Below, in pieces: positions 16,513 through 52,941 of a DNA stretch of 61,017 nucleotides. The stretch lies in the NCBI GenBank assembly GCA_024275795.1, contig JAJRYJ010000030.1, positions 1 through 61,017 of the forward strand, written 5' to 3'. A program made the position numbers and the translations under genes. Position 1 is the stretch's first letter; every line of letters begins with the position of its first letter. This DNA comes from Actinomycetes bacterium (GTDB lineage Bacteria > Actinomycetota > Thermoleophilia > BMS3ABIN01). Under the pieces are notes generated by a model. It was not told the DNA's origin, did no database searches, and worked only from the letters and a program-made list of their open reading frames with translations.

Positions 16513-18456
16513 TCAGGTGACGATCTCACCGGTCATGGATATATCATACCCCCCCAGGGCCAAAACTCTATCCTTGAACTCGGGGGAGCGGATCACCTCG
16601 AGCAGCGAAACGATTCGCACTGTATCCATGAAGCGCCCGGGTATGGCGAGATCGAAGCGCTCCGTGGCTACGGGTATGAAGTCGAGGCCCAGCGCCGCCG
16701 CCGCCGCGAGGATGCCCATGCCGGCGTCCGCGGTTCCCTCCAGCACCGCCGCCGCAACGGCCATGTGGGAATATTCCTCCCGGTCGTATCCCTCGATCAC
16801 TCCGGCATCGAGGCTCCTCTGCTTCAGGTGGTAGTCAAGCAGTACCCTGGTGCCGGAACCCTTCTGGCGGTTGATGAACGACATGTTTGCGCGCGCCAGG
16901 TCTTCGATGCCGCCGATCTTCAGGGGATTGCCCGGCGCGACCATCAGGCCCTGTTCCCTGAAGGACAGGTTCACCAGATTGATGTCCGCTTCCGGCAGGT
17001 AGCGCTGCACGTAACTCCTGTTGTATTCGCCCGTATCCTCGTCGAGCAGATGCGTGCCTGCAATGTGGGCTTCGCCCCGCTTCAGGGCCATCAGCCCTCC
17101 GAGGCTGCCGATGCGGGCGCTTGAGAGGCTGAGCCCGGGGAACCTGTGCCGGAGCTCGCTGGCGAGGATGTCCAGGCAGATATCATGGCTGCCGAGGGCG
17201 ACGATGGTGTTCTCCACATCCTCCAGGTCCTTGAGCAGTTCAACCTCCACCTGCTCCCCGGCCCTGACGCCTTCGCTTGCCTCAGGTATGCGCAGGATGC
17301 CGTCTGCCCGCACCATGGACATCAGGGCGCCGGCGCCCCGCTCTATCGGGGCGGCTACCAGCTTGTCGTCCACCCTGCCAAGCTTGACGCGGACGAACTC
17401 CTCCGAACCCAGGCTTGAAGCTATCTTGCGCGGCATATGCGCGCTCACCTTCTGGGCCGCCGCCGACTGCCTTCCCTGAAGGCTGTATGCCAGCGGCCGC
17501 GCGAAAAACTCCATGTCCAGCGCCGCCGAGACCGGATAGCCGGGAATACCCAGAACCGGCGTCTCATCGACGATTCCCAGCACGACCGGTTTTCCGGGCC
17601 TGATGCGCACCCCGTGCACCAGCACCTCGCCCAGTTCCCGGATGGCGTGGACCGTGAAGTCACGGCTGCCTGCCGAGGAACCCGCGTTGATGATGACCAG
17701 GTGATGGTCGCCGGTGGCGGCGGCCAGCGCCTGCTTGATCTCTTCCAGTTCGTCGGCGACTATCCCGTGCCGTAGGGGCTCACAGCCCCACTGGCTGGCC
17801 ATGCTCGCCAGCAGCCGCGAGTTGAACTCGATGATGTCACCGCGCCTGAGCGGCGTCCCCGGCTGAACCAGCTCCGAGCCGGTGGGGATTATCATCACAC
17901 GCGGCCGCGTACGCACCCTCACCTGTGTCAGTCCCCCCGCAAGCATCGCCGCCAGGTCGACGGGGCGAATCAGGTGATTCTCCGGCAGGATGAGTTCGGT
18001 GGCGACGATGTCCTCCCCGACCGTCCTCACATGCTGCCAGGGGGTGACGGGCGACGTTATCTCGATACCGGCGGCGACCTGGTCTACGTCCTCGATCATG
18101 ATTACCGCGTCGAAGCCTTCCGGCAAGGGATCGCCCGTATCCACCGGCTTTGCCTGTGAGCCGATCTCCAGACGCACCGGCTCCGCCTCGGAGGCGTTGA
18201 AGGTCTCCTGGAACCGCACTGCGTAGCCGTCCATGGCTGAGCAGTGGTTGTGGGGGGACGACTCCCCGGCGAACACCGGCTCCGCTGTCACCCTGCCCAG
18301 GCTGTCGTCAACGGGAATCGCAACCGCCCCCAGGGGATCGCTCAGACCGCGTTGCGACAGGGCCTCAAGCCACCGGTTGACGGCCTCGGCCAGCGAGATA
18401 TTGCTGAGATACACGATCCTGTCCGGGCCGTCGGCATTCAAAACAGTTCCACCCAT
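16513..18456 (-). CDS. MoeA-type molybdopterin molybdotransferase fused to a C-terminal periplasmic-binding-protein-like domain
   Basis: MoeA N, central and C-terminal regions (MDGYAVR, PTGSEL, GPG.S.G..D) followed by a ~230-aa PBP-like domain. 647 aa. Confidence 0.85.
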   Translation of the reverse strand: MGGTVLNADGPDRIVYLSNISLAEAVNRWLEALSQRGLSDPLGAVAIPVDDSLGRVTAEPVFAGESSPHNHCSAMDGYAVRFQETFNASEAEPVRLEIGSQAKPVDTGDPLPEGFDAVIMIEDVDQVAAGIEITSPVTPWQHVRTVGEDIVATELILPENHLIRPVDLAAMLAGGLTQVRVRTRPRVMIIPTGSELVQPGTPLRRGDIIEFNSRLLASMASQWGCEPLRHGIVADELEEIKQALAAATGDHHLVIINAGSSAGSRDFTVHAIRELGEVLVHGVRIRPGKPVVLGIVDETPVLGIPGYPVSAALDMEFFARPLAYSLQGRQSAAAQKVSAHMPRKIASSLGSEEFVRVKLGRVDDKLVAAPIERGAGALMSMVRADGILRIPEASEGVRAGEQVEVELLKDLEDVENTIVALGSHDICLDILASELRHRFPGLSLSSARIGSLGGLMALKRGEAHIAGTHLLDEDTGEYNRSYVQRYLPEADINLVNLSFREQGLMVAPGNPLKIGGIEDLARANMSFINRQKGSGTRVLLDYHLKQRSLDAGVIEGYDREEYSHMAVAAAVLEGTADAGMGILAAAAALGLDFIPVATERFDLAIPGRFMDTVRIVSLLEVIRSPEFKDRVLALGGYDISMTGEIVT

Positions 18457-26920: not shown

Positions 26921-27772
26921 CTGGATATCTCTGGTCAGACATCCCTGACAGGAATCATCGGTGATCCTGTTTCCCACAGCCTGTCGCCACGCATGCATAA
27001 CGCCGCCTACGCTGCCATGGGCCTGGATCTCTGTTACGTGCCCTTGCCTGTCAGGCCCGATGACCTGGAGGCGGCGGCAGGGGGCCTGCGCGCCCTGAAC
27101 TTCGTCGGCGCCAACGTCACCATACCGCACAAGGTAAGGATCGCCGGCTTCATGGACAGGCTGCACGACAGCGCCGCGGTTACCGGCGCCGTCAATACCA
27201 TCGTCAACGAAAACGGCATTCTTACCGGCTATAATACTGACGGCCCCGGTTTCATACGGGCTCTTGAGGAAGTCACCTCTCTTGATTACCCGCAGACCGA
27301 GACGGTGATTATCGGCGCCGGTGGCGCCGCCCGGGCGGTAGCGTCCGCACTGGCCGGGCATGGAGTTCCCAGGATAACGATAATCAACCGCACCAGGGAA
27401 CGTGCGCTTGATTTGCAGGATATAATCAGTGGACATTTCAGCGATGTAACTGTCGAGACCGCCCCTCTTGAGGGCGGCCTGGACGCAGTTTCTAGTGGAG
27501 CCGCCTTGATTATCAATGCGACCCCGCTGGGCATGATGGATGACCTAAAGGCAGTTCCCCTCCCGGTCGATAGATTAACGAAAGACCATGTCGTCTGTGA
27601 CCTGGCATATGTGGAGTCCGGAGAGACCCCACTGCAGGAGGCGGCAAGGAAAAAAGGGGCGACAACTTTGGGCGGACTCGGCATGCTTCTTCATCAGGGA
27701 GCTGAGGCTATTCATCTGTGGACCGGCGAGGACCCCCCCATTGATATCATGAGGCGGGCCATTGAACCCTAG
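26921..27772 (+). CDS. aroE: Shikimate dehydrogenase. The start is uncertain; a non-canonical CTG is proposed.
   Basis: The conserved N-terminal GIIGDPVSHSLSPRMHN motif lies upstream of the first ATG (26993). AAGGAGG at 26909-26915 precedes an in-frame CTG at 26921. NRT, GAGGAARA and NATP.GM motifs lie downstream. Confidence 0.8.
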   Translation: MDISGQTSLTGIIGDPVSHSLSPRMHNAAYAAMGLDLCYVPLPVRPDDLEAAAGGLRALNFVGANVTIPHKVRIAGFMDRLHDSAAVTGAVNTIVNENGILTGYNTDGPGFIRALEEVTSLDYPQTETVIIGAGGAARAVASALAGHGVPRITIINRTRERALDLQDIISGHFSDVTVETAPLEGGLDAVSSGAALIINATPLGMMDDLKAVPLPVDRLTKDHVVCDLAYVESGETPLQEAARKKGATTLGGLGMLLHQGAEAIHLWTGEDPPIDIMRRAIEP

Positions 27773-29477
27773 CGAAGCAACATCACGTAAAAACCACACG
27801 AAGCTCAGGCCCATCGGCGAGATTCTCGTCAACAAGGGCATGATCACACGGGACCAGCTGGAAAACGCGCTGGACCAGCAGAAAGAAACCTCCAAGCGCC
27901 TCGGCGAGATCCTTGTGGACGAAGGCATCATCAGCCAGGACCAGCTGAACCTGGCGTTGGCTGAGCGCCTGGGCGTCGAGAGTATCGGCCTTTCCGAGGG
28001 CGATGTCGATTCCCTGGCGGCGACGATGATTCCCGAGAAGCTCGCCCGCCGTTACGGCGCCATCCCCGTCAGGTTCATCGACGAGAACACGCTTCAGGTG
28101 GCCATGGTGGATCCCACTAACGTGTTCGCCATCGACGACCTGCGCATGATGACCGGCTACGACATCAAGCCCGCCATCGCCACTGCGGAAGAGGTCTTCG
28201 AACAGATATCCAAGGTCCACAGGCTTGGCGAGACGGTCGACGAGGAGGAACTGGTTGACGGCGAGATCGGCGAGGCCGAGGAGGAGACGTCATCCGACAT
28301 CCGCGACGTCGCCGCCGAAGCGCCGATCATCAAGCTCGTCAACGGCGTCATCAGCCAGGGTGTGGACGACAGGGCCAGCGACCTGCACTTCGAGCCCCAG
28401 GAGAAGGAGCTCGTGATTCGCTTCAGGGTCGACGGCGTGCTGCACGAGATCATGTCCGTCCCCAAGCGCATGCAGGCCGGCGTCATCTCCCGCCTCAAGG
28501 TAATGGCGGATATCGATATCGCCGAAAGGCGTATCCCCCAGGACGGCCGCATCGGTCTCACGGTAGGCGGCAAGCCCATCGATATCCGCGTTGCTTCCAT
28601 GCCTACTGTCTATGGCGAAAAGATAGTGCTCAGGCTGCTGGACAAGAGCAGCGTCATGCTGAACCTCACTGACCTGGGGTTCGCCGAGAAGGCGCTGGCG
28701 CGCTATGAGAGTTCCTACCGCAAACCCTATGGGGCGATCCTGGTGACGGGACCGACCGGCAGCGGCAAGTCCACCACCCTCTATGCGACCCTGAATGTGC
28801 TCAATAGCAGGGAAAAGAACATCATCACCGTTGAGGATCCGGTGGAGTACCGGCTGGGCGGTATCAACCAGACCCAGATCAATACCAAGGCCGGGCTGAC
28901 TTTCGCCTCGGGTCTCAGGGCCATCCTGCGCTCCGACCCTGACATAGTCATGGTGGGAGAGATCCGCGACCGGGAGACCGCCCAGATCGCCATCGAGGCG
29001 GCGCTGACCGGACACATGGTTTTAAGCACACTGCACACCAATGATGCGCCGGGAGCCCTGACGCGGCTTACGGAGATGGGCGTGGAGCCCTTCCTGACCG
29101 CGTCGGCCATCGAGTGCGTGCTCGCCCAGCGGCTGGCCAGGCGCCTCTGCACCGAGTGCAAGGAAGCTTACGAGCCCACGGATGAGGCTCTCAGGCAGAA
29201 CGGTTTCCCCGACGAGGTCGTCGGGCAGGGCATCAAGCTCTACCGGGCCAAGGGTTGTCCCCGCTGCAATAACACCGGCTACAAGGGCCGCCTGGGGCTC
29301 TACGAGGTCATGCTGGTGAGCGAGGCGATCGAGCGGTTAACGGTAGAGCGGAAAAGTGCCGATGAGATTTCACGGGTAGCACAGGCGGAGGGAATGGTTA
29401 CCCTGCGTGAAGATGGCATCGAGAAGGTCATCAAAGGGATGACTTCGGTGGAAGAGATAGGCCGCGTAATCATCTAG
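27762..29477 (+). CDS. pilB: Type IV pilus assembly ATPase PilB (GspE family) with an N-terminal MshEN-type domain
   Basis: Walker A GPTGSGKST, Asp/His boxes, tetracysteine CxxC...CxxC, and two N-terminal 24-aa RLGxxLVxxG... motifs. Confidence 0.9.
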   Translation: MNPSEATSRKNHTKLRPIGEILVNKGMITRDQLENALDQQKETSKRLGEILVDEGIISQDQLNLALAERLGVESIGLSEGDVDSLAATMIPEKLARRYGAIPVRFIDENTLQVAMVDPTNVFAIDDLRMMTGYDIKPAIATAEEVFEQISKVHRLGETVDEEELVDGEIGEAEEETSSDIRDVAAEAPIIKLVNGVISQGVDDRASDLHFEPQEKELVIRFRVDGVLHEIMSVPKRMQAGVISRLKVMADIDIAERRIPQDGRIGLTVGGKPIDIRVASMPTVYGEKIVLRLLDKSSVMLNLTDLGFAEKALARYESSYRKPYGAILVTGPTGSGKSTTLYATLNVLNSREKNIITVEDPVEYRLGGINQTQINTKAGLTFASGLRAILRSDPDIVMVGEIRDRETAQIAIEAALTGHMVLSTLHTNDAPGALTRLTEMGVEPFLTASAIECVLAQRLARRLCTECKEAYEPTDEALRQNGFPDEVVGQGIKLYRAKGCPRCNNTGYKGRLGLYEVMLVSEAIERLTVERKSADEISRVAQAEGMVTLREDGIEKVIKGMTSVEEIGRVII

Positions 29478-29512: not shown

Positions 29513-30580
29513 ATGGACCTGGTTGATATCCTGGTCGAAGTCCTCGAAAGGGAAGCCTCGGACCTTCATCTGACTGTAGGCTCTCCTCCGATCATCAGAT
29601 TATCGGGCCGGTTGGTAGGCCTCGATTATCCGCGCCTCACCAGCAACGACACGCGCGATCTTATCTACAGTATCCTCTCCCAGGACCAGCGGCAGAGGAT
29701 CGAGAACGAGTGGGAGATCGATTTCTCCTATTCCGTACCGGGCAGGGCGCGTTTCCGTGTCAATGCCTACTTCCAGCGCAACAGCCTGGGGGCGGCCTTC
29801 AGGCTGATACCGGCGCAGATCAAATCGCTTGACGACCTGATGCTGCCGCTGTCACTGCACAAGATGGCGGCCAAGCCGCGAGGATTCGTGCTGGTCACCG
29901 GGCCCACCGGCTCCGGCAAGTCCACGACCCTGGCGGCGCTTATCCAGGAGATCAACGAGACACGCGAGGAACACATCATGACCATCGAGGACCCCATCGA
30001 GTTCCTCTATCGTCACAATAAATCCATCATCAACCAGCGGGAAGTGGGGACGGACACCAAGTCCTTCAACCGCGCCCTCAAGTCCGTGCTCAGGCAGGAC
30101 CCGGACGTGATTCTCGTGGGCGAGATGCGGGACAACGAGACCATGTAGACGGCCCTGACGGCGGCGGAGACCGGCCACCTGGTGTTCGCGACGCTGCATA
30201 CCCAGGACGCGCCGCAGACCATCGACAGGATCATCGACGTCTTCCCGCCACATGAACAGGGTCAGATCCGTGTACAGCTGGCGGCGACGCTGATGGGGAT
30301 CTGCACGCAGCAGCTGCTGCCACATATCGACGGCAACAAGCGCGTCCCCGCCTGCGAGGTGCTGATTCCCACGCCGGCGGTCAGGAACCTGATACGGGAA
30401 GCGAAGACGCACCAGATATATTCGGTTATCCAGACCGGCACCCAGTTCGGCATGCAGACGATGGACGCTTCACTCGCCGAACTCGTTAAACGCGGCATCG
30501 TCAAGAAAGACGTGGCGCTGCGCAAGTCAAGCAATCCCGAAGAGGTGGAACGCCTGATATTGGGCAGGCGTGTCGCCTGA
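29513..30580 (+). pseudogene. pilT: Twitching-motility ATPase PilT interrupted by one in-frame TAG at 30146-30148
   Basis: ORFs 29513-30148 and 30182-30580 are in the same frame. The read-through sequence ...[29 protein letters not shown]... restores the contiguous Walker B / His-box region of PilT. Confidence 0.8.
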
Positions 30581-30600: not shown

Positions 30601-31827
30601 ATGACTATGAGCACATTCGTCTACAAAGTACGCGATGTCCGCGGTATACCCAGCAAGGGAGAGGTGGAGGCTGACAACCGGGATTCCGCCGCCGCCAATC
30701 TCAGGGGCCGTGGTTTTACCATCCTCGATATCAGTGAGAAGAAGGGTGGTTCGTCCATCAAGGCGCAGCTGGCTGAGTCCAAGCGTATCAAGTCGAAGGA
30801 CGTGACCATCTTCTCGCGGCAGTTCGCCACCATGATCAATTCGGGCCTGGCGATGCTGCGCGCCCTCGATATCCTGGAAAAACAGACGCAGAACCACAAG
30901 ATGCGGTCTGTGATCGCTGATACCAAGAACGACGTCGAGGCGGGCGCCTCCCTGTCGGACGCCATGGAGAAGCATCCCAAGGTCTTCAACAGCCTCTATG
31001 TGAGCATGGTGCGCGCGGGCGAGGCCGGCGGCATCCTGGATGATACGCTCAACAGGGTAGCGACACAGCTGGAAGCGGAGGACAGCCTCAAGCGCACGAT
31101 TCGTTCGGCAATGGTGTACCCGTTGCTGATTGCGGCGTTCGCGCTGCTTGTGCTTACGGCGATGATCCTCTTCATCATACCGGTCTTCTCCAAGATGTAC
31201 GCGGACCTGGGCAGCCAGTTGCCGCTGCTGACGCGCATCATGGTGGGCATCAGCAACGTCATGAGAAGCGTCTGGGGCGTCTTCATCATCGGTGGCGCCA
31301 TCGGCGGAATATACGGGATCATGCGCCTGAAACGCACACCCCAGGGTACAGCCGCCTGGGATCGTTTCAAGCTGAAGGTGCCCATGGGTATCGGCGATAT
31401 CGTCCGCAAGGTGATCATGGCACGCTTCTCGCGCACCATGAGCACGCTGGTATCGAGTGGAGTCCCCATATTGCAGGCGATAGACATCACCGGTGAGACC
31501 GCCGGCAACGTGGTCGTCTCGGAAGCGATGGCGGGGGTCAAGGCCAGCGTCAAGGAGGGCCGCCCCATGTCGGAACCCCTGGCGAAGGTCGATGTATTCC
31601 CGGCCATGGTTACGCAGATGATCGCTGTAGGCGAGGAGACGGGAGCAGTCGATACCATGCTCAACAAGATCGCCGACTTCTATGAAGATGAGGTCAACGC
31701 GGCAGTTAAATCACTGACATCGATACTGGAGCCGATCATGATGATCGGCGTCGGCGCCCTGGTCGGAGTGATCGTGATCTCCCTGTATCTGCCGATATTC
31801 AACCTGATGTCGATTCTCGGCTCGTAA
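30601..31827 (+). CDS. pilC: Type IV pilus platform protein PilC (GspF family)
   Basis: Two T2SSF repeats, three TM segments, 408 aa. Confidence 0.92.
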   Translation: MTMSTFVYKVRDVRGIPSKGEVEADNRDSAAANLRGRGFTILDISEKKGGSSIKAQLAESKRIKSKDVTIFSRQFATMINSGLAMLRALDILEKQTQNHKMRSVIADTKNDVEAGASLSDAMEKHPKVFNSLYVSMVRAGEAGGILDDTLNRVATQLEAEDSLKRTIRSAMVYPLLIAAFALLVLTAMILFIIPVFSKMYADLGSQLPLLTRIMVGISNVMRSVWGVFIIGGAIGGIYGIMRLKRTPQGTAAWDRFKLKVPMGIGDIVRKVIMARFSRTMSTLVSSGVPILQAIDITGETAGNVVVSEAMAGVKASVKEGRPMSEPLAKVDVFPAMVTQMIAVGEETGAVDTMLNKIADFYEDEVNAAVKSLTSILEPIMMIGVGALVGVIVISLYLPIFNLMSILGS

Positions 31828-31838
31828 AGGAAACGGTC

Positions 31839-32696
31839 TTGGGTGCAACAGCCACAAAAGCAGCCCCGGTTCGATCCGGGGATAAACGTACGGCGGATAA
31901 ACGTACGGTGGAATCCTGCAAGGTCGTGAGGCTGCCGAGCAGCAGGAAGATTGAACGCCGCAACAACGAACTGGTGGAGGAGTACCAGCTCTCCCGGGAC
32001 GCGAGGATTCTCGAGAAGATACTCGAGGACAATGACGGTCTTATCCACGCCACCCTGAAACGCTTCACCTATTTCCCGGATCCGTATGAGGATATCGTCC
32101 AGGTGGCGAGGCTGGGCATGATCAAGGCGGTACAGCGTTTCGACTGCTCGAAGGGTGTTGAGTTCTCCAGTTATGCGACGGCTATCATCGACGGCGAGGT
32201 CAGGCACTACCTGCGGGACAATACGCTGATGCGGCAGCCCCGGTGGCTGAGCAAGGCGGAAAAGCGCATCGAAGAGGCAAACATAGAGCTGTCACGCGAG
32301 CTCAAGCGGGCGCCGACGCTGGAGGAGCTTGCCGACGAGGCGAACATCTCCCAGGAGGGTATCCTGGAGATATTGAGGGTCAGAGCGGCATCGGGCATCC
32401 ATTCGGTAGACGACCCCGCGTCAAAGGAAAACTTCTACCCCGCACCGGATGAGAGCGTCGTCAGTTCACTCAGGTACGAGTCCTTCTCGTTGCCGATCGA
32501 GGATGAGATAACGTTGCATGATGCGTTCAAGGCCCTAAACGGCTTTCAGAAACGCCTGGTATATCTGCTTTTCTACAAGGATCTGACCCAGACCGAGGTC
32601 GCTAGGCAGCTGGGGTTGTCGCAGCGCAAGGTATCGCGTGAATCCGCCAAGGCAATCGGACGCATGAAGGCGATCCTCAACACCAGGATCTTCTAG
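31839..32696 (+). CDS. Sigma-70 family sigma factor (SigB/F/G-like group 3) embedded in the pilus locus
   Basis: Region 2 (ARLGMIKAVQRFD...YATAIIDGEVRHYLRD) and region 4 HTH (LTQTEVARQLGLSQRKVSR). The start is uncertain: TTG 31839 or GTG 31908. Confidence 0.8.
   Translation: MGATATKAAPVRSGDKRTADKRTVESCKVVRLPSSRKIERRNNELVEEYQLSRDARILEKILEDNDGLIHATLKRFTYFPDPYEDIVQVARLGMIKAVQRFDCSKGVEFSSYATAIIDGEVRHYLRDNTLMRQPRWLSKAEKRIEEANIELSRELKRAPTLEELADEANISQEGILEILRVRAASGIHSVDDPASKENFYPAPDESVVSSLRYESFSLPIEDEITLHDAFKALNGFQKRLVYLLFYKDLTQTEVARQLGLSQRKVSRESAKAIGRMKAILNTRIF
31880..31909 (+). repeat. 15-bp tandem duplication (14/15 identical) at the 5' end of the sigma-factor ORF
   Basis: ggataaacgtacggc / ggataaacgtacggt, encoding DKRTA-DKRTV if translated. 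Confidence 0.9.
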
Positions 32697-32844
32697 GTGC
32701 GCCATCTTATTGATGTATTAAAGTATTCATCCCATTGTGCCGATTTTTCCCTCAGCTTCACCAGTTCCCCGGTGACAGGGCAAAATCAGAAAGCAGCGGC
32801 GGCAGGTGTCTAAAAAAGTGGCAGTTGGGTAGCATAGGGGTGAA

Positions 32845-32925
32845 GGTGAAAAAGGCAAACCACTCGCAAGGGTGGGGCGCAAAGCTACAGGACCAGCGGA
32901 GCTGGTTGGCTGAGCTGCCACCAGA
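32845..32925 (+). promoter_or_regulatory. Putative c-di-GMP-I (GEMM-I) riboswitch aptamer in the pilin leader
   Basis: GGCAAACC-ACUC-GCAA-GGGUGG-GGCGCAAAGCU-[CAGGACCAGC GGA GCUGGUUGGCUG]-AGC. This matches the GEMM-I core: GGCAAACC, a GNRA-capped P2, G(A/G)CGCAAAGC(C/U), P3, then AGC. Confidence 0.7.
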
Positions 32926-32939
32926 GATCAGTACAGGAT

Positions 32940-32970
32940 CTGTGGTTTGCCGAAAACCACAGATTTTTTT
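32940..32970 (+). terminator. Intrinsic terminator forming the riboswitch expression platform
   Basis: ctgtggttt-gccga-aaaccacag followed by aTTTTTTT, about 45 nt upstream of the pilin start. Confidence 0.7.
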
Positions 32971-33015
32971 GTGGTTTTTCAGAAACTGAGTGATTGAGGA
33001 AGGGAGGTGACAGTT

Positions 33016-33411
33016 GTGAACACGAAGATCAGGAAAAGGATGCAGGCAGGCGGCGAGGGCGGCTTCACGCTCATCGAGCTGTTGGTGGTGATTATCATTA
33101 TCGCCATCCTGGCAGCGATCGCCATTCCGATGTACCTGAGTCAGCGTCAGAAGGGCTGGGAAGCCAACGCCAGGAGTGATCTGAGGAACGCTGCGGTGGC
33201 GCAGGAGAGTTATTTCACCGATAACGATACCTACACTACTACGGAAGCCAATCTCACGGCAGAGGGCTTTAACCCGTCCGCTAATGTGACGATGGACTAC
33301 ATCGTCGGCAGTGCCACTCGTTACTGCATGTCAGCTGTAAACGACAACGGTGGCGACAAGTTCTACATCGACAGCGATGACGGCGAGCCGACCACCACGG
33401 CTTGCTCGTAA
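33016..33411 (+). CDS. pilA: Type IV major pilin (prepilin with class III signal)
   Basis: GG|FTLIELLVVIIIIAILAAIAIP with Glu+5. GGGAGG SD lies 8 nt upstream of the GTG at 33016; the ORF track starts at 33007. Confidence 0.9.
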   Translation: MNTKIRKRMQAGGEGGFTLIELLVVIIIIAILAAIAIPMYLSQRQKGWEANARSDLRNAAVAQESYFTDNDTYTTTEANLTAEGFNPSANVTMDYIVGSATRYCMSAVNDNGGDKFYIDSDDGEPTTTACS

Positions 33412-33443
33412 GCAGGCAACCATGTGATATCGCTATCACTCGC

Positions 33444-33477
33444 GGAAGGCGGGTCCTCCTTCGAGGGCCCGCTTTCC
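33444..33477 (+). terminator. Stem-loop after the first pilin gene (possible partial terminator or stabiliser)
   Basis: ggaaggcgggtcc ... gggcccgctttcc, a 13-bp stem with two G-U pairs. There is no clean T-run. Confidence 0.4.
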
Positions 33478-33531
33478 TCATAAACAGGGCCGCAGCCAGG
33501 ATTCAACGGCAAGGAACGGAATAATATTACA

Positions 33532-33933
33532 ATGAGCTTATCTTTCCCCAGATATAAGCTTCATGCCGGTGGCGGTTTCACGATGATCGAACTGCTCCTT
33601 GTTATCATCATCATTGTCATTCTCTCATTGATAGCGATTCCGTTCTTCTTGTCCCAGCGTGAAAAAGGCTGGGACGCCAATGTAAAGAGTGATCTCCATA
33701 ACGCGGCTATCGCCCAGCAGACGTATTTTCACGATAACGACACCTTTGCCAGCCAGTTGAGCGATCTGCTGGACGCTGGTTACCGCAATTCATCGAAGAT
33801 AATGCTCTCGGTCGAGTCGGCGGACAGCAACGGCTTCTGCCTGGAGGCGTACCACGAAGCCGATCCAGGCAGCGTCTGGTACGTGGACAACGGCGCCGGC
33901 ACGCCCAACCCCCTGGAGGGCACCTGTCCCTGA
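33532..33933 (+). CDS. Type IV pilin paralog
   Basis: GG|FTMIELLLVIIIIVILSLIAIPFF. Clear paralog of the preceding pilin (shared SQR.KGW.AN.(K/R)SDL.NAA.AQ..YF.DND(T)(Y/F)). Confidence 0.9.
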   Translation: MSLSFPRYKLHAGGGFTMIELLLVIIIIVILSLIAIPFFLSQREKGWDANVKSDLHNAAIAQQTYFHDNDTFASQLSDLLDAGYRNSSKIMLSVESADSNGFCLEAYHEADPGSVWYVDNGAGTPNPLEGTCP

Positions 33934-49911: not shown

Positions 49912-51078
49912 ATGGAGGCGCTGCAGCGGAAGACCCAGGAAGCAGCCGAGACGGATGAGTTGACAGGCCTTAAGAACCGCGGTCATTTTCTGCATCACCT
50001 CAAGCAGGAGTTCAGCAAGGCAAAACGCTTCGGAAAACCGCTCTCGCTGGTCATCGTAGACCTGGAGGGATTCAAGGATATCAACGACGACTTCGGCTAT
50101 CACAAGGGCGACGAAGTGCTCAGAAAACTGGGGATGATGCTCAGGAATGAAGTTGGCCCTCATGATTACGTTGCACGCTACGGCAAAGAGGAGTTCGCCA
50201 TGGTGCTTCCGGAGATGGACGGCATCAAGGCCACCATCCTGGCCCGCAAGCTGCACGGCAAACTCGGCCGGGTAGCCGAGGATACGGAGATCGATGATTC
50301 GTACGTGGCTGCGGTATTCGGCGTAGCGGATTTTCCCGACTGCGCGTCCGACAGCGACAGCCTGCTGTCGGCGGCGGATTCGGCGCTGCTGTTCGCGAGA
50401 CGCAACCCGCAGTCGCGCGTCGCCTATTTCTGCGACCTCAGCGAGACCGAACTGAGCCAGACAGACCTTGATCGTCTCAACAGCCGGCTGGAGGGCGCCA
50501 GCCTCAAAACACTGAATGCCCTCGCCGAGGCCGTCAACGTCAACGATAATTATTCGGGAGAGAATATCGACGATATGGCGCTGATGGCCGTCTCCCTGGC
50601 CCGGGATCTGGGTTTGAACGACGAGCAGGCGGGGGCCCTGGCGCTGGCTACGAGGCTGCATGACATCGGCAAGATAGGCGTTCCCAGCTCTATCCTGGGC
50701 AAGACCGGCAAACTCTCGCCGGACGAGCTTGCGCTGGTGAAACAGCATCCCGAGATCGGCCAGAAGCTGCTCCAGGAGGCCGAACAGATAAAGGACCTGA
50801 TATCGGCCATCCTTTACCACCACGAGCGCTGGGACGGCAAAGGCTACCCGGAACGGCTCAAGGGCGAGCAGATTCCGCTGATGGCCCGCATCGTCGGCAT
50901 TTTCGATGCCTACAGGGCCATGCGCTGCGACCGGCCCTACCGCAAGGCACTCTCCAAGCAGCAGGCGCTGGCGGAACTTAAGAAGGGGGCCGGCAGCCAG
51001 TTCGATCCCAACATCGTCCAGCAGTTCCTTGAACTGCTGGAGAGGGACAGTTGCGATATCGGGGAAAAGGCCAGCTGA
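49912..51078 (+). CDS. GGDEF (degenerate GKEEF) plus HD-GYP protein; C-terminal part of the split paralog
   Basis: The ATG immediately follows the in-frame TAG. GGDEF-domain fold with GKEEF, then HDIGKIGVP...HHERWDGKGYP. Confidence 0.85.
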   Translation: MEALQRKTQEAAETDELTGLKNRGHFLHHLKQEFSKAKRFGKPLSLVIVDLEGFKDINDDFGYHKGDEVLRKLGMMLRNEVGPHDYVARYGKEEFAMVLPEMDGIKATILARKLHGKLGRVAEDTEIDDSYVAAVFGVADFPDCASDSDSLLSAADSALLFARRNPQSRVAYFCDLSETELSQTDLDRLNSRLEGASLKTLNALAEAVNVNDNYSGENIDDMALMAVSLARDLGLNDEQAGALALATRLHDIGKIGVPSSILGKTGKLSPDELALVKQHPEIGQKLLQEAEQIKDLISAILYHHERWDGKGYPERLKGEQIPLMARIVGIFDAYRAMRCDRPYRKALSKQQALAELKKGAGSQFDPNIVQQFLELLERDSCDIGEKAS

Positions 51079-51141: not shown

Positions 51142-52941
51142 ATGATCACAAGATACATATCAGGGCATCTGAGCTCGATGCGCCGCATCTTCATCGTGAT
51201 GATCTCCTTCGGCCTGGCCATGGGCCTGGTGTTCCCGCTGGTGGCGGAGCCCTTTGTCGAATGGGTGCCGGGCCGCAAGGGCTATTTCCAGCTCGCCTGC
51301 CTGGCCGCCGGCTTCGCCGTGGGAACCTTCTGCTATTACCTGGTGAAACTGACCCTTTTCGAGAAGAACATGATACTGGCTGAGCGCAAGCGGACTCTGG
51401 AAGCCGCGAAGGATCGTTTCAGCACGCTTACAAGCACGGCTATCACCAGCCGCGACTGGGACGTGAGTTTTCATGACGGGCATGTGCCTACCTGCTGGAA
51501 GGTCAAGGGCTGCGACAATCGTGACTGTCCCTGTTACGGCAGGGAGAACATACGCTGCTGGCTCGTGACCGGCACTTACTGCGGTGGCGTGGTCCAGGGG
51601 CGTTTCGCCCAGAAGCTCGAAAGTTGCACCCAGTGTTCGGTTTACCAGGAGGCGGTGGAGAGGGATCCGATAAACGAGATCGGCGAGAACTTCAACAGCC
51701 TGATGTGGGTCGTCAAGGAGCGGGAGGACGAGCTGTCCGAAGCCCGCAACAAGCTGCAGGCCAACTACTCGGAGCTGGAGCGGCTGCACGAGAAGGTCAA
51801 GGAGGCGTCCATAACTGATTCATTGACGGGTCTGAGGAACCACGGCCATTTCCAGCAGCACCTGGAACAGGAGGCGGAACGCGCCAACCGTTACCGGCGC
51901 CCCCTTTCCCTGGTGATGCTCGATCTCGACTTTTTCAAATCCGTGAATGATAAATACGGCCACCAGAAGGGCGACCAGGTGCTGAGCGGCATCGGACGCC
52001 TTCTCAAGGGTGAGCTCAGGCGCATGGACTACGCGGCGCGCTACGGCGGCGAGGAGTTCGTCATCGTCATGCCCGAGACGACCGGGAAAGAGGCCTGCGA
52101 GGTGGCCGAGAGGCTGCGGAAGAAGGTGGGCGCCGTCGCTGAAGATGTCGGTCTGCCACAGGTGCCGCTGGCCGCCAGCTTCGGCGTGGCCGACATGCCG
52201 TCGTGCGCCAACGACAACGAGAGCCTCGTGGCCGCCGCCGACTCGGCGCTGCTGTTCGCCAAGAGCAAGGGCAGGGACCAGGTGGCCTATTTCCGCGACC
52301 TGTCGGAGACCGAGCTCGGCGAGCGGGACATCGACGGCCTCAACATGCGGCTGGAGGGCGCCAGCCTCAAGACCATCTGTTCGCTGGCTGAGGCGGTGGA
52401 CGCCAGGGACAGCTACACGGGCCAGGAGTCGCGCAACATGTCGGCCATAGCCGAGATGATGGCGGAAAAGCTGAACCTGAGCCGCGAGCAGGTGGAATCG
52501 CTGTCGCTGGCCACAGTGCTGCATGATATCGGCAAGATCGGCATACCGGACTCGGTGTTGAGCAAGAAGGACAAGCTGTCGGAGGAAGAGGTCGAGGTGA
52601 TTCAGCAGCATCCGCAAATCGGCAAACGCATCATGCGCGAGGCGGAGCAGATACAGGACCTGGTCTCGGCTATCCTCTATCATCATGAGCGCTGGGACGG
52701 CACCGGCTATCCGGAACAGCTCAAGGGCGAGGAGATACCGCTGATGGCCAGGGTGGTGGGAATCTTCGACGCCTACCGGGCGATGACGACGGACCGGCCC
52801 TACCGCAAGGCTCTGAACGAGAAATCGGTCATGGAAGAGCTGCGCAAGGGCGCCGGCAGCCAGTTCGACCCGCAACTGGTGGATCTGTTCATCGAGACCA
52901 TTGAATCACAGCGCGGCCAGGATATAGCCCAGGCGGGTTGA
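51142..52941 (+). CDS. Intact membrane Cys-rich sensor / GGDEF (GGEEF, RxxD I-site) / HD-GYP protein
   Basis: TM helices, CWKVKGC...CPC...RCWLVTGTYC...CTQCSVY, RRMD-x5-GGEEF, HDIGKIGIP...HHERWDGTGYP. Confidence 0.9.
   Translation: MITRYISGHLSSMRRIFIVMISFGLAMGLVFPLVAEPFVEWVPGRKGYFQLACLAAGFAVGTFCYYLVKLTLFEKNMILAERKRTLEAAKDRFSTLTSTAITSRDWDVSFHDGHVPTCWKVKGCDNRDCPCYGRENIRCWLVTGTYCGGVVQGRFAQKLESCTQCSVYQEAVERDPINEIGENFNSLMWVVKEREDELSEARNKLQANYSELERLHEKVKEASITDSLTGLRNHGHFQQHLEQEAERANRYRRPLSLVMLDLDFFKSVNDKYGHQKGDQVLSGIGRLLKGELRRMDYAARYGGEEFVIVMPETTGKEACEVAERLRKKVGAVAEDVGLPQVPLAASFGVADMPSCANDNESLVAAADSALLFAKSKGRDQVAYFRDLSETELGERDIDGLNMRLEGASLKTICSLAEAVDARDSYTGQESRNMSAIAEMMAEKLNLSREQVESLSLATVLHDIGKIGIPDSVLSKKDKLSEEEVEVIQQHPQIGKRIMREAEQIQDLVSAILYHHERWDGTGYPEQLKGEEIPLMARVVGIFDAYRAMTTDRPYRKALNEKSVMEELRKGAGSQFDPQLVDLFIETIESQRGQDIAQAG

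Follow-up and report, generated by a model that had tools for sequence, protein, structure and literature searches.

A class I c-di-GMP riboswitch aptamer and probable OFF switch in the leader of a major type IV pilin gene from Thermoleophilia

The major type IV pilin gene in a 61,017 bp stretch of Thermoleophilia DNA (hereafter the window) has a 5′ leader in which a class I c-di-GMP aptamer is followed by an intrinsic terminator. Comparative data and modelling of the alternative structures make it likely that the leader of the pilin mRNA is a canonical class I c-di-GMP riboswitch that acts as an OFF switch through transcription termination.

Organization of the pilin locus

The pilus genes of the window and its genes for predicted c-di-GMP proteins are as follows.

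27762-29477, PilB, with an MshEN domain (Pfam)
29513-30580, PilT, interrupted by an in-frame TAG
30601-31827, PilC
31839-32696, sigma-70-family factor with regions 2, 3 and 4
Leader of 310 nt between the sigma factor gene and the first pilin gene
33002-33411, + strand, type IV pilin, the regulated gene, with Shine-Dalgarno sequence GGGAGG at 33002-07, probable start GTG at 33016 and stop at 33411
33532-33933, second pilin
49912-51078 and 51142-52941, two adjacent genes for GGDEF plus HD-GYP (HD_5) proteins

The reading frame of the first pilin is open from 33007, and its product has the prepilin motif GFTLIELL and the Pfam domains N_methyl and ComP_DUS; the Shine-Dalgarno sequence and start position are kept in relatives. 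Several minor pilin-like genes follow the second pilin. The TAG in the gene for the PilT retraction ATPase (30146-30148) falls inside a conserved stretch (GEMRDNETM, then the stop, then TALTAAETGHLVFATLHT) and could reflect a pseudogene, an assembly error or recoding. At about residues 16–68 of PilB two tandem 24-residue motifs separated by a 5-residue gap can be recognized by eye (PIGEILVNKGMITRDQLENALDQQ, KETSK, RLGEILVDEGIISQDQLNLALAER), and they fit a relaxed c-di-GMP-binding motif (PMC5013675); c-di-GMP may therefore affect this pilus through a protein as well as through an RNA. The two GGDEF plus HD-GYP genes are 17 kb from the riboswitch and are candidate c-di-GMP synthase/phosphodiesterases, and with them in the window c-di-GMP turnover in the host is plausible. 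The gene at 16513-18456, which matched a regular expression for GGDEF, encodes a MoeA/PBP protein instead and was set aside.

The aptamer

A search of the whole window with Rfam cmscan, using all families at their gathering thresholds, gave one match, at 32845-32923 on the + strand. This is to RF03167 (c-di-GMP-I-GGC) at 62.1 bits with an E-value of 2.8e-12, only 3 bits above the gathering score of 59. A second family of the same clan (CL00126) passes its own gathering threshold at this position, with its name masked by clan competition, and membership of the window in RF01051 is read through this clan match and the near-identical locus L008 (61.0 bits against a gathering score of 35). Our own covariance model, built from sister sequences, scores the window aptamer at 100 bits, and the leader region folds far better than its shuffles (z = -5.2). 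The components of the aptamer are listed below.

32845-32923, + strand, c-di-GMP-I (GEMM-I) aptamer, from the Rfam clan match, our own covariance model and covariation
32845-48 and 32919-22, + strand, P1 (GGUG/CACC)
32855-56 and 32879-80, + strand, pairs G21-C46 and C22-G45
32860-65 and 32870-75, + strand, P2, with a GCAA loop at 32866-69
32883-97 and 32901-16, + strand, P3
32854, 32881 and 32918, + strand, ligand-contact positions G20, A47 and C92 (Vc2 numbering)
32878 and 32909, + strand, interhelical pair C44 and G83

The original prediction had picked out the aptamer, the terminator and a helix competing with both, and the sequences it quoted are all where it placed them, including the two strands of the competing helix (32921-29 and 32937-45). 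Within the aptamer, GGCAAACC is at 32854-32861, the GCAA-capped hairpin at 32860-32875, GGCGCAAAGCU at 32876-32886 and the imperfect helix at 32888-32912. The AGC said to follow P3 is present at 32913-15, but it lies inside the 3′ strand of P3, and the C that contacts the ligand (C92) is at 32918. An RNAalifold consensus computed on a MAFFT alignment had a shifted P3 register and no P1, and it was dropped for the Rfam and crystal-structure register, which is backed by the covariation counts. Two mechanically called open reading frames, 32735-32989 (+) and 32727-32921 (-), overlap the aptamer. The aptamers of relatives are 75–98 nt long, with length differences that are not multiples of three, which makes a reading frame conserved across them unlikely.

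Conservation and covariation

Homologues of the sigma factor carry the labels Thermoleophilia, Gaiellales or Actinobacteria MAGs, and from their alignment 80 loci were fetched from species-representative genomes, nearly all of them Thermoleophilia/Actinomycetota MAGs. The first 18 loci all have a clan CL00126 aptamer, ~100–250 nt past the sigma gene (~1.4 kb in two loci), and a covariance model built from these sequences and run on 81 sources identified 79 aptamers in 62 of them. For 77 of the 79, a pilin reading frame with the GFTLIELL motif begins ~80–210 nt downstream. Standard pairs occupy 96.6% of the cells in the 79 aptamers, compared with 29–54% in slid controls, and none of 500 shuffles reaches the observed covariation score, such that the three-helix junction of P1, P2 and P3 is backed by covariation. 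The original prediction had made covariation of P2 and P3 in homologous pilin leaders one of its tests, and compensatory changes on both sides are seen at 15 of the 26 aptamer pairs. The ligand contacts are nearly invariant, with G20 in 76, A47 in 78 and C92 in all 79 aptamers; C44 and G83 are each present in every one, as is a GNRA loop on P2 (GCAA in the window). These data and the clan match uphold the class I assignment, and they identify the element in the pilin leader as a genuine class I c-di-GMP riboswitch aptamer.

Several loci have two aptamers ~0.8–1.2 kb apart (L016, L017, L021, L024, L030, L035–L038, L044, L046, L049, L056, L063 and L077–L079), and nearly every copy precedes its own pilin reading frame and has its own promoter-like block. 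The window has one aptamer only, and none was found when one was sought for its second pilin (33532-33933).

Promoter-like block and adjacent sigma factor

A short block upstream of the aptamer resembles a promoter.

32807-32835, + strand, promoter-like block, with TGTCTA at 32807-12, a 17-nt spacer and TAGCAT at 32830-35

The block, TGTCTA-N17-yAsnAT (where yAsnAT is (T/C)A(G/C)NAT), ends ~9 nt before P1. It is kept in the window and in all 15 close relatives, and is recognizable in front of the other aptamers including the second copies. A scan with the sigma-70 consensus did not call it, and a reading of its -10 element as GGGTAT of the SigB/SigF type was rejected, as GGGTAT is confined to 16 of the 79 sequences, the subgroup of the window. 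The leader thus seems to be transcribed from a promoter of its own, which would place the aptamer at the start of the mRNA. In the loci examined, which were found through the sigma-70-family gene (31839-32696 in the window), that gene is always directly upstream. The unusual -35 element and the invariably adjacent sigma gene suggest a dedicated sigma factor, and the two may form a dedicated pair for the pilin genes.

Expression platform

The features downstream of P1 are as follows.

32921-32945, + strand, antiterminator hairpin AT1, in which the 3′ strand of P1 and AGAUC (32921-29) pair with GAUCU and UGG (32937-45)
32935-32970, + strand, intrinsic terminator, with a 14-bp stem (32935-48 and 32954-67), loop GCCGA and U-tract at 32964-70
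32942-32951, + strand, AT2, antiterminator/anti-aptamer segment GUGGUUUGCC, which extends over the 5′ arm and loop of the terminator
32953-32978, + strand, post-terminator hairpin, AAAACCAC (32953-60, in the terminator 3′ arm) with GUGGUUUU (32971-78) and the U-tract as its loop

A consensus terminator scan of 32500-33600 finds one terminator-like site, at 32935-32967, followed by T-rich sequence. Its core is ctgtggttt (32940-48) and aaaccacag (32954-62), with seven T residues at 32964-70, and it has a folding energy of -17.6 kcal/mol. The window and its 15 closest relatives all keep a terminator (16 of 16), with folding energies of -15 to -29 kcal/mol and pairing in 98.1% of cells, in agreement with the intrinsic terminator originally proposed. 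After P1 these 16 sequences share a pattern of CCACC-R-(G/U)(A/G)G(A/G)UY, a loop, GGAUCUGUGGUUUGCC, a loop, a variable 3′ arm, U6-8 and GUGGYY. The terminator 5′ arm, GGAUCUGUGGUUUGCC (32936-51), is almost invariant; changes fall nearly always on the 3′ arm, where they are tolerated as G-U. Such an almost invariant 5′ arm opposite a drifting 3′ arm suggests a second partner for the 5′ arm.

Two pairings with upstream sequences were found. One is AT1, the competing helix of the original prediction, which overlaps the aptamer 3′ side and the terminator 5′ arm. It contains a G x G mismatch (32924/32942), is present in the minimum free energy (MFE) fold of the nascent transcript of the window and most relatives, and is paired in 95.8% of cells in the 16 sequences, compared with 24–49% for slid controls. 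The second is AT2, in which GUGGUUUGCC (32942-51) can pair without a mismatch with the aptamer core GGCAAACCAC (32854-63, a stretch that takes in G20, G21 and C22) as a 10-bp duplex of -18.9 kcal/mol; the shuffle mean is -7.5 kcal/mol and none of 100 shuffles is as good. The AT2 segment is invariant among close relatives except for an inserted U or G in four, whereas its terminator partner varies. We rejected the continuous duplex as a family-wide trait, as among more distant relatives it is split into two blocks (4+4 bp) or is non-significant, and the claim for AT2 is limited to the window's clade. The partner strands of AT2 are invariant and thus give no strict covariation proof, and the same is true of AT1, where the variation in the 16 sequences is one-sided or wobble-compatible only.

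Transcripts folded up to the terminator loop adopt the antiterminator pairings in 16 of 16 sequences, with P2 and the upper part of P3 kept in most. The antiterminator and terminator folds of the window are mutually exclusive, as the original prediction anticipated, and nearly isoenergetic (-51.8 kcal/mol for the antiterminated MFE and -50.2 kcal/mol for aptamer plus terminator). With 15 more nucleotides, the antiterminated fold with the post-terminator hairpin is at -61.9 kcal/mol, compared with -56.3 kcal/mol when the aptamer is enforced. Constrained folding with the aptamer enforced yields the terminator in all 16, and even without constraint the terminator is part of the MFE at the U-tract in 11 of 16 relatives; the switch decision must therefore be kinetic, as is usual for terminator-type riboswitches. 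The post-terminator helix is paired in 83.6% of cells and has compensatory changes at five of its eight pairs (16 sequences), and the hairpin is present in the MFE of the extended transcript. In the modelled folds it could form only in read-through transcripts, where it may play a part.

Predicted mechanism and sign of regulation

The leader has the anatomy of a terminating OFF riboswitch: a terminator precedes the start codon, and its 5′ arm can instead enter another helix with aptamer nucleotides. The original prediction had recognized an arrangement suited to transcriptional switching, which is indeed present, and had left the sign unstated; the anatomy indicates OFF. Transcription would probably start a few nucleotides before P1, from the conserved promoter-like block. 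Binding of c-di-GMP at the three-helix junction (32854, 32881 and 32918) would lock P1 (GGUG/CACC) and the junction, leaving GGAUCUGUGGUUUGCC free to pair with 32954-67, and the resulting terminator hairpin and U7 would stop RNA polymerase near 32968-70. When there is no ligand, CCA...AGAUC (32921-29) would capture GAUCU...UGG (32937-45), and GGCAA(ACCAC) (32854-63) would capture (GUGGU)UUGCC (32942-51); both captures would block the terminator and the pilin gene would be transcribed. Following read-through, the orphaned 3′ arm of the terminator would pair with 32971-78. The predicted sign follows from the aptamer nucleotides being competitors for the terminator 5′ arm and not part of it, so that ligand binding would release the arm and give termination.

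There is some tension with the neighboring genes. MshEN domains in other bacteria couple high c-di-GMP to pilus extension, and the MshEN domain of PilB appears to sit oddly with repression of the pilin by c-di-GMP; it would better fit positive control of pili, in which the same aptamer and ligand promote read-through, as in C. difficile pilA1 or B. thuringiensis Bc2. The class I terminator-type c-di-GMP switches are uniformly OFF in C. difficile, and the sign of class I riboswitches varies between species, with ON switches known (PMC6366702). Thermodynamic folding alone also separates the two states poorly. However, the 3′ strand of P1 is outside the terminator stem, with a 12-nt gap between them, and it and the aptamer core complement the terminator 5′ arm, such that aptamer formation frees the arm; all 16 sequences form the terminator when the aptamer is enforced. 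We thus consider an ON switch to be unlikely.

A simple two-state model has no need of the covarying post-terminator helix, which would be accounted for if the main output of the riboswitch were a change in how stable the mRNA is or how it is processed, by way of this hairpin, or a trans-acting short terminated RNA. Such outputs seem quite improbable given a textbook terminator with a U7 tract in all close relatives, and the Shine-Dalgarno sequence (33002-07) has no partner within the leader in the modelled folds. Transcription termination remains the preferred output.

Ligand recognition and variant families

The nucleotides of the window that correspond to ligand contacts are all canonical (G32854, A32881 and C32918). 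Their counterparts G20, A47 and C92 are the three residues of Vc2 that contact c-di-GMP (PMC4744006, PMC5888326), and A at position 20 is the mark of cGAMP-selective GEMM-Ib RNAs (PMC6140456); the window has G there. The original prediction left the choice between c-di-GMP and 3′3′-cGAMP undecided, and the canonical G20, A47 and C92 narrow it to c-di-GMP. On this sequence evidence we predict a canonical c-di-GMP binding site with c-di-GMP as its ligand, and not 3′3′-cGAMP or another molecule.

The best-scoring Rfam model, RF03167, could be taken to suggest otherwise. The GGC variant was reportedly defined by Weinberg et al. in 2017, and from the name and the two consensus lines we take GGC to denote positions 20, 47 and 92. 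The RF03167 consensus reads GGGACGCGAAgCc and that of RF01051 reads ggGACGCAAAgCc; their sole conserved difference (ACGCGAAgC and ACGCAAAgC respectively) aligns with A47 of Vc2. At this site the window has CGCAAAGC, with A at 32881 as in RF01051, and it lacks the G that replaces A47 in RF03167. Near-identical sequences from the sister loci score best now with RF03167 (59.9–65.8 bits), now with RF01051 (55–62 bits, gathering score 35). The RF03167 label of the window thus appears to reflect peripheral similarity and is misleading, and the Rfam 'GGC variant' label is unreliable for the Thermoleophilia lineage.

Variant aptamers do occur in relatives in the same genomic context. Three (L053:4954-5033, L055:4943-5023 and L059:4943-5021) have A at the G20 position (GAGCAAACC), as is characteristic of GEMM-Ib RNAs that sense cGAMP or are bispecific (PMC6140456); they are in the same position before a pilin gene, with no pilin motif detected after the L053 copy. 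In another (L033:7576-7650), also before a pilin, there is G at the A47 position together with A23G and C46U; it scores 41 bits on RF01051 and may be either a diverged variant or a decaying copy. These variants and the top-scoring model are what would favor a different ligand for the window, as expected of the c-di-GMP-I-GGC class or a cGAMP-type GEMM-Ib RNA. We think this very unlikely, with A and not G where the two consensus sequences differ, G at position 20 where cGAMP-selective RNAs carry A, an RF03167 score so close to its threshold, and RF01051 as the top model for several sisters including L008. Weakest of all is the reading that the resemblance is fortuitous, or that the aptamer has decayed and no longer functions, with an unrelated terminator beside it, for which the precedent is that several predicted c-di-GMP riboswitches are non-functional in C. 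difficile (PMC6366702), but which is scarcely credible given the E-value and is contradicted by the comparative data, including the shared position in 62 sources, the compensatory changes and the nearly invariant ligand contacts.

Comparison with known c-di-GMP riboswitches

The closest parallel in design is Cd1 of C. difficile (Cdi-1-3, before flgB), which likewise has a GEMM-I aptamer followed by an intrinsic terminator, and in which ligand binding causes premature termination, making it an OFF switch (PMC6366702). It differs in controlling flagellar genes in a Firmicute whereas the element described here precedes a type IV pilin in Thermoleophilia, and here the antiterminator pairs also with the ligand-contact core, from G20 to the P2 5′ strand. 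The closest parallel in context is Cdi-2-4 of the same organism, which is also a c-di-GMP riboswitch acting by transcription termination in the leader of a major type IV pilin gene, pilA1 (PMC6366702); however, it is of class II, with an unrelated aptamer fold, and is ON with c-di-GMP, whereas this one is of class I and predicted to be OFF. Vc2 of Vibrio cholerae, the structural reference for GEMM-I, has the same three-helix architecture, GNRA loop on P2, C44-G83 pair and G20/A47/C92 contacts (PMC4744006, PMC5888326) but a different expression platform, and the class I riboswitches of V. cholerae do not act by termination (PMC6366702). RF03167 RNAs are very like the window in peripheral sequence features, but their consensus has G at a position that is A in the window and in 78 of 79 relatives. 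The GEMM-Ib 3′3′-cGAMP riboswitches of Geobacter share the fold of the window aptamer, and GEMM RNAs in Geobacter likewise occur with genes for pilus assembly (PMC1950547); those of the GEMM-Ib type have A at position 20 (PMC6140456), in contrast to G in the window, and share it with L053, L055 and L059.

Discussion

The window element is a sound, ordinary instance of a well-known RNA family and not a new kind of element. The original prediction considered a class I aptamer in front of a pilin to be an independent instance, and it does differ from the class II element of pilA1. This novelty was overstated, as a default Rfam scan finds the element and GEMM-I RNAs were linked to pilus genes at their first description (cpaA, pilM, pilO, pilQ and pulF, and the pili of Geobacter; PMC1950547). 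A literature search for riboswitches in Thermoleophilia found no paper. What is particular to this lineage is in the details, including the predicted sign, the antiterminator that pairs with G20, the post-terminator helix, the promoter and sigma factor pair, and the A20 and G47 variants. The natural series of canonical, A20 and G47 aptamers in one genomic context could be used for the study of ligand specificity.

We tentatively propose, with rather less confidence than for the riboswitch itself, that these details together constitute a lineage-specific pilin module of Thermoleophilia and related MAGs, with a dedicated sigma factor, an unusual promoter before every major pilin gene, an OFF switch that sequesters G20 and a post-terminator 'lock' helix. 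Such a module would often serve two pilins, each with its own copy of the promoter. Its sign would be opposite to that of the only studied pilin riboswitch, C. difficile pilA1, and it would be set against a PilB whose MshEN domain would bind c-di-GMP; shifts in ligand specificity would be marked by the G20A and A47G variants that occur naturally in this setting. For Thermoleophilia, an actinobacterial class that is uncultured and poorly studied, the pilin leader offers a concrete link from c-di-GMP to the expression of a type IV pilin that can be tested, with a predicted sign, repression, that is opposite to the Clostridioides precedent.
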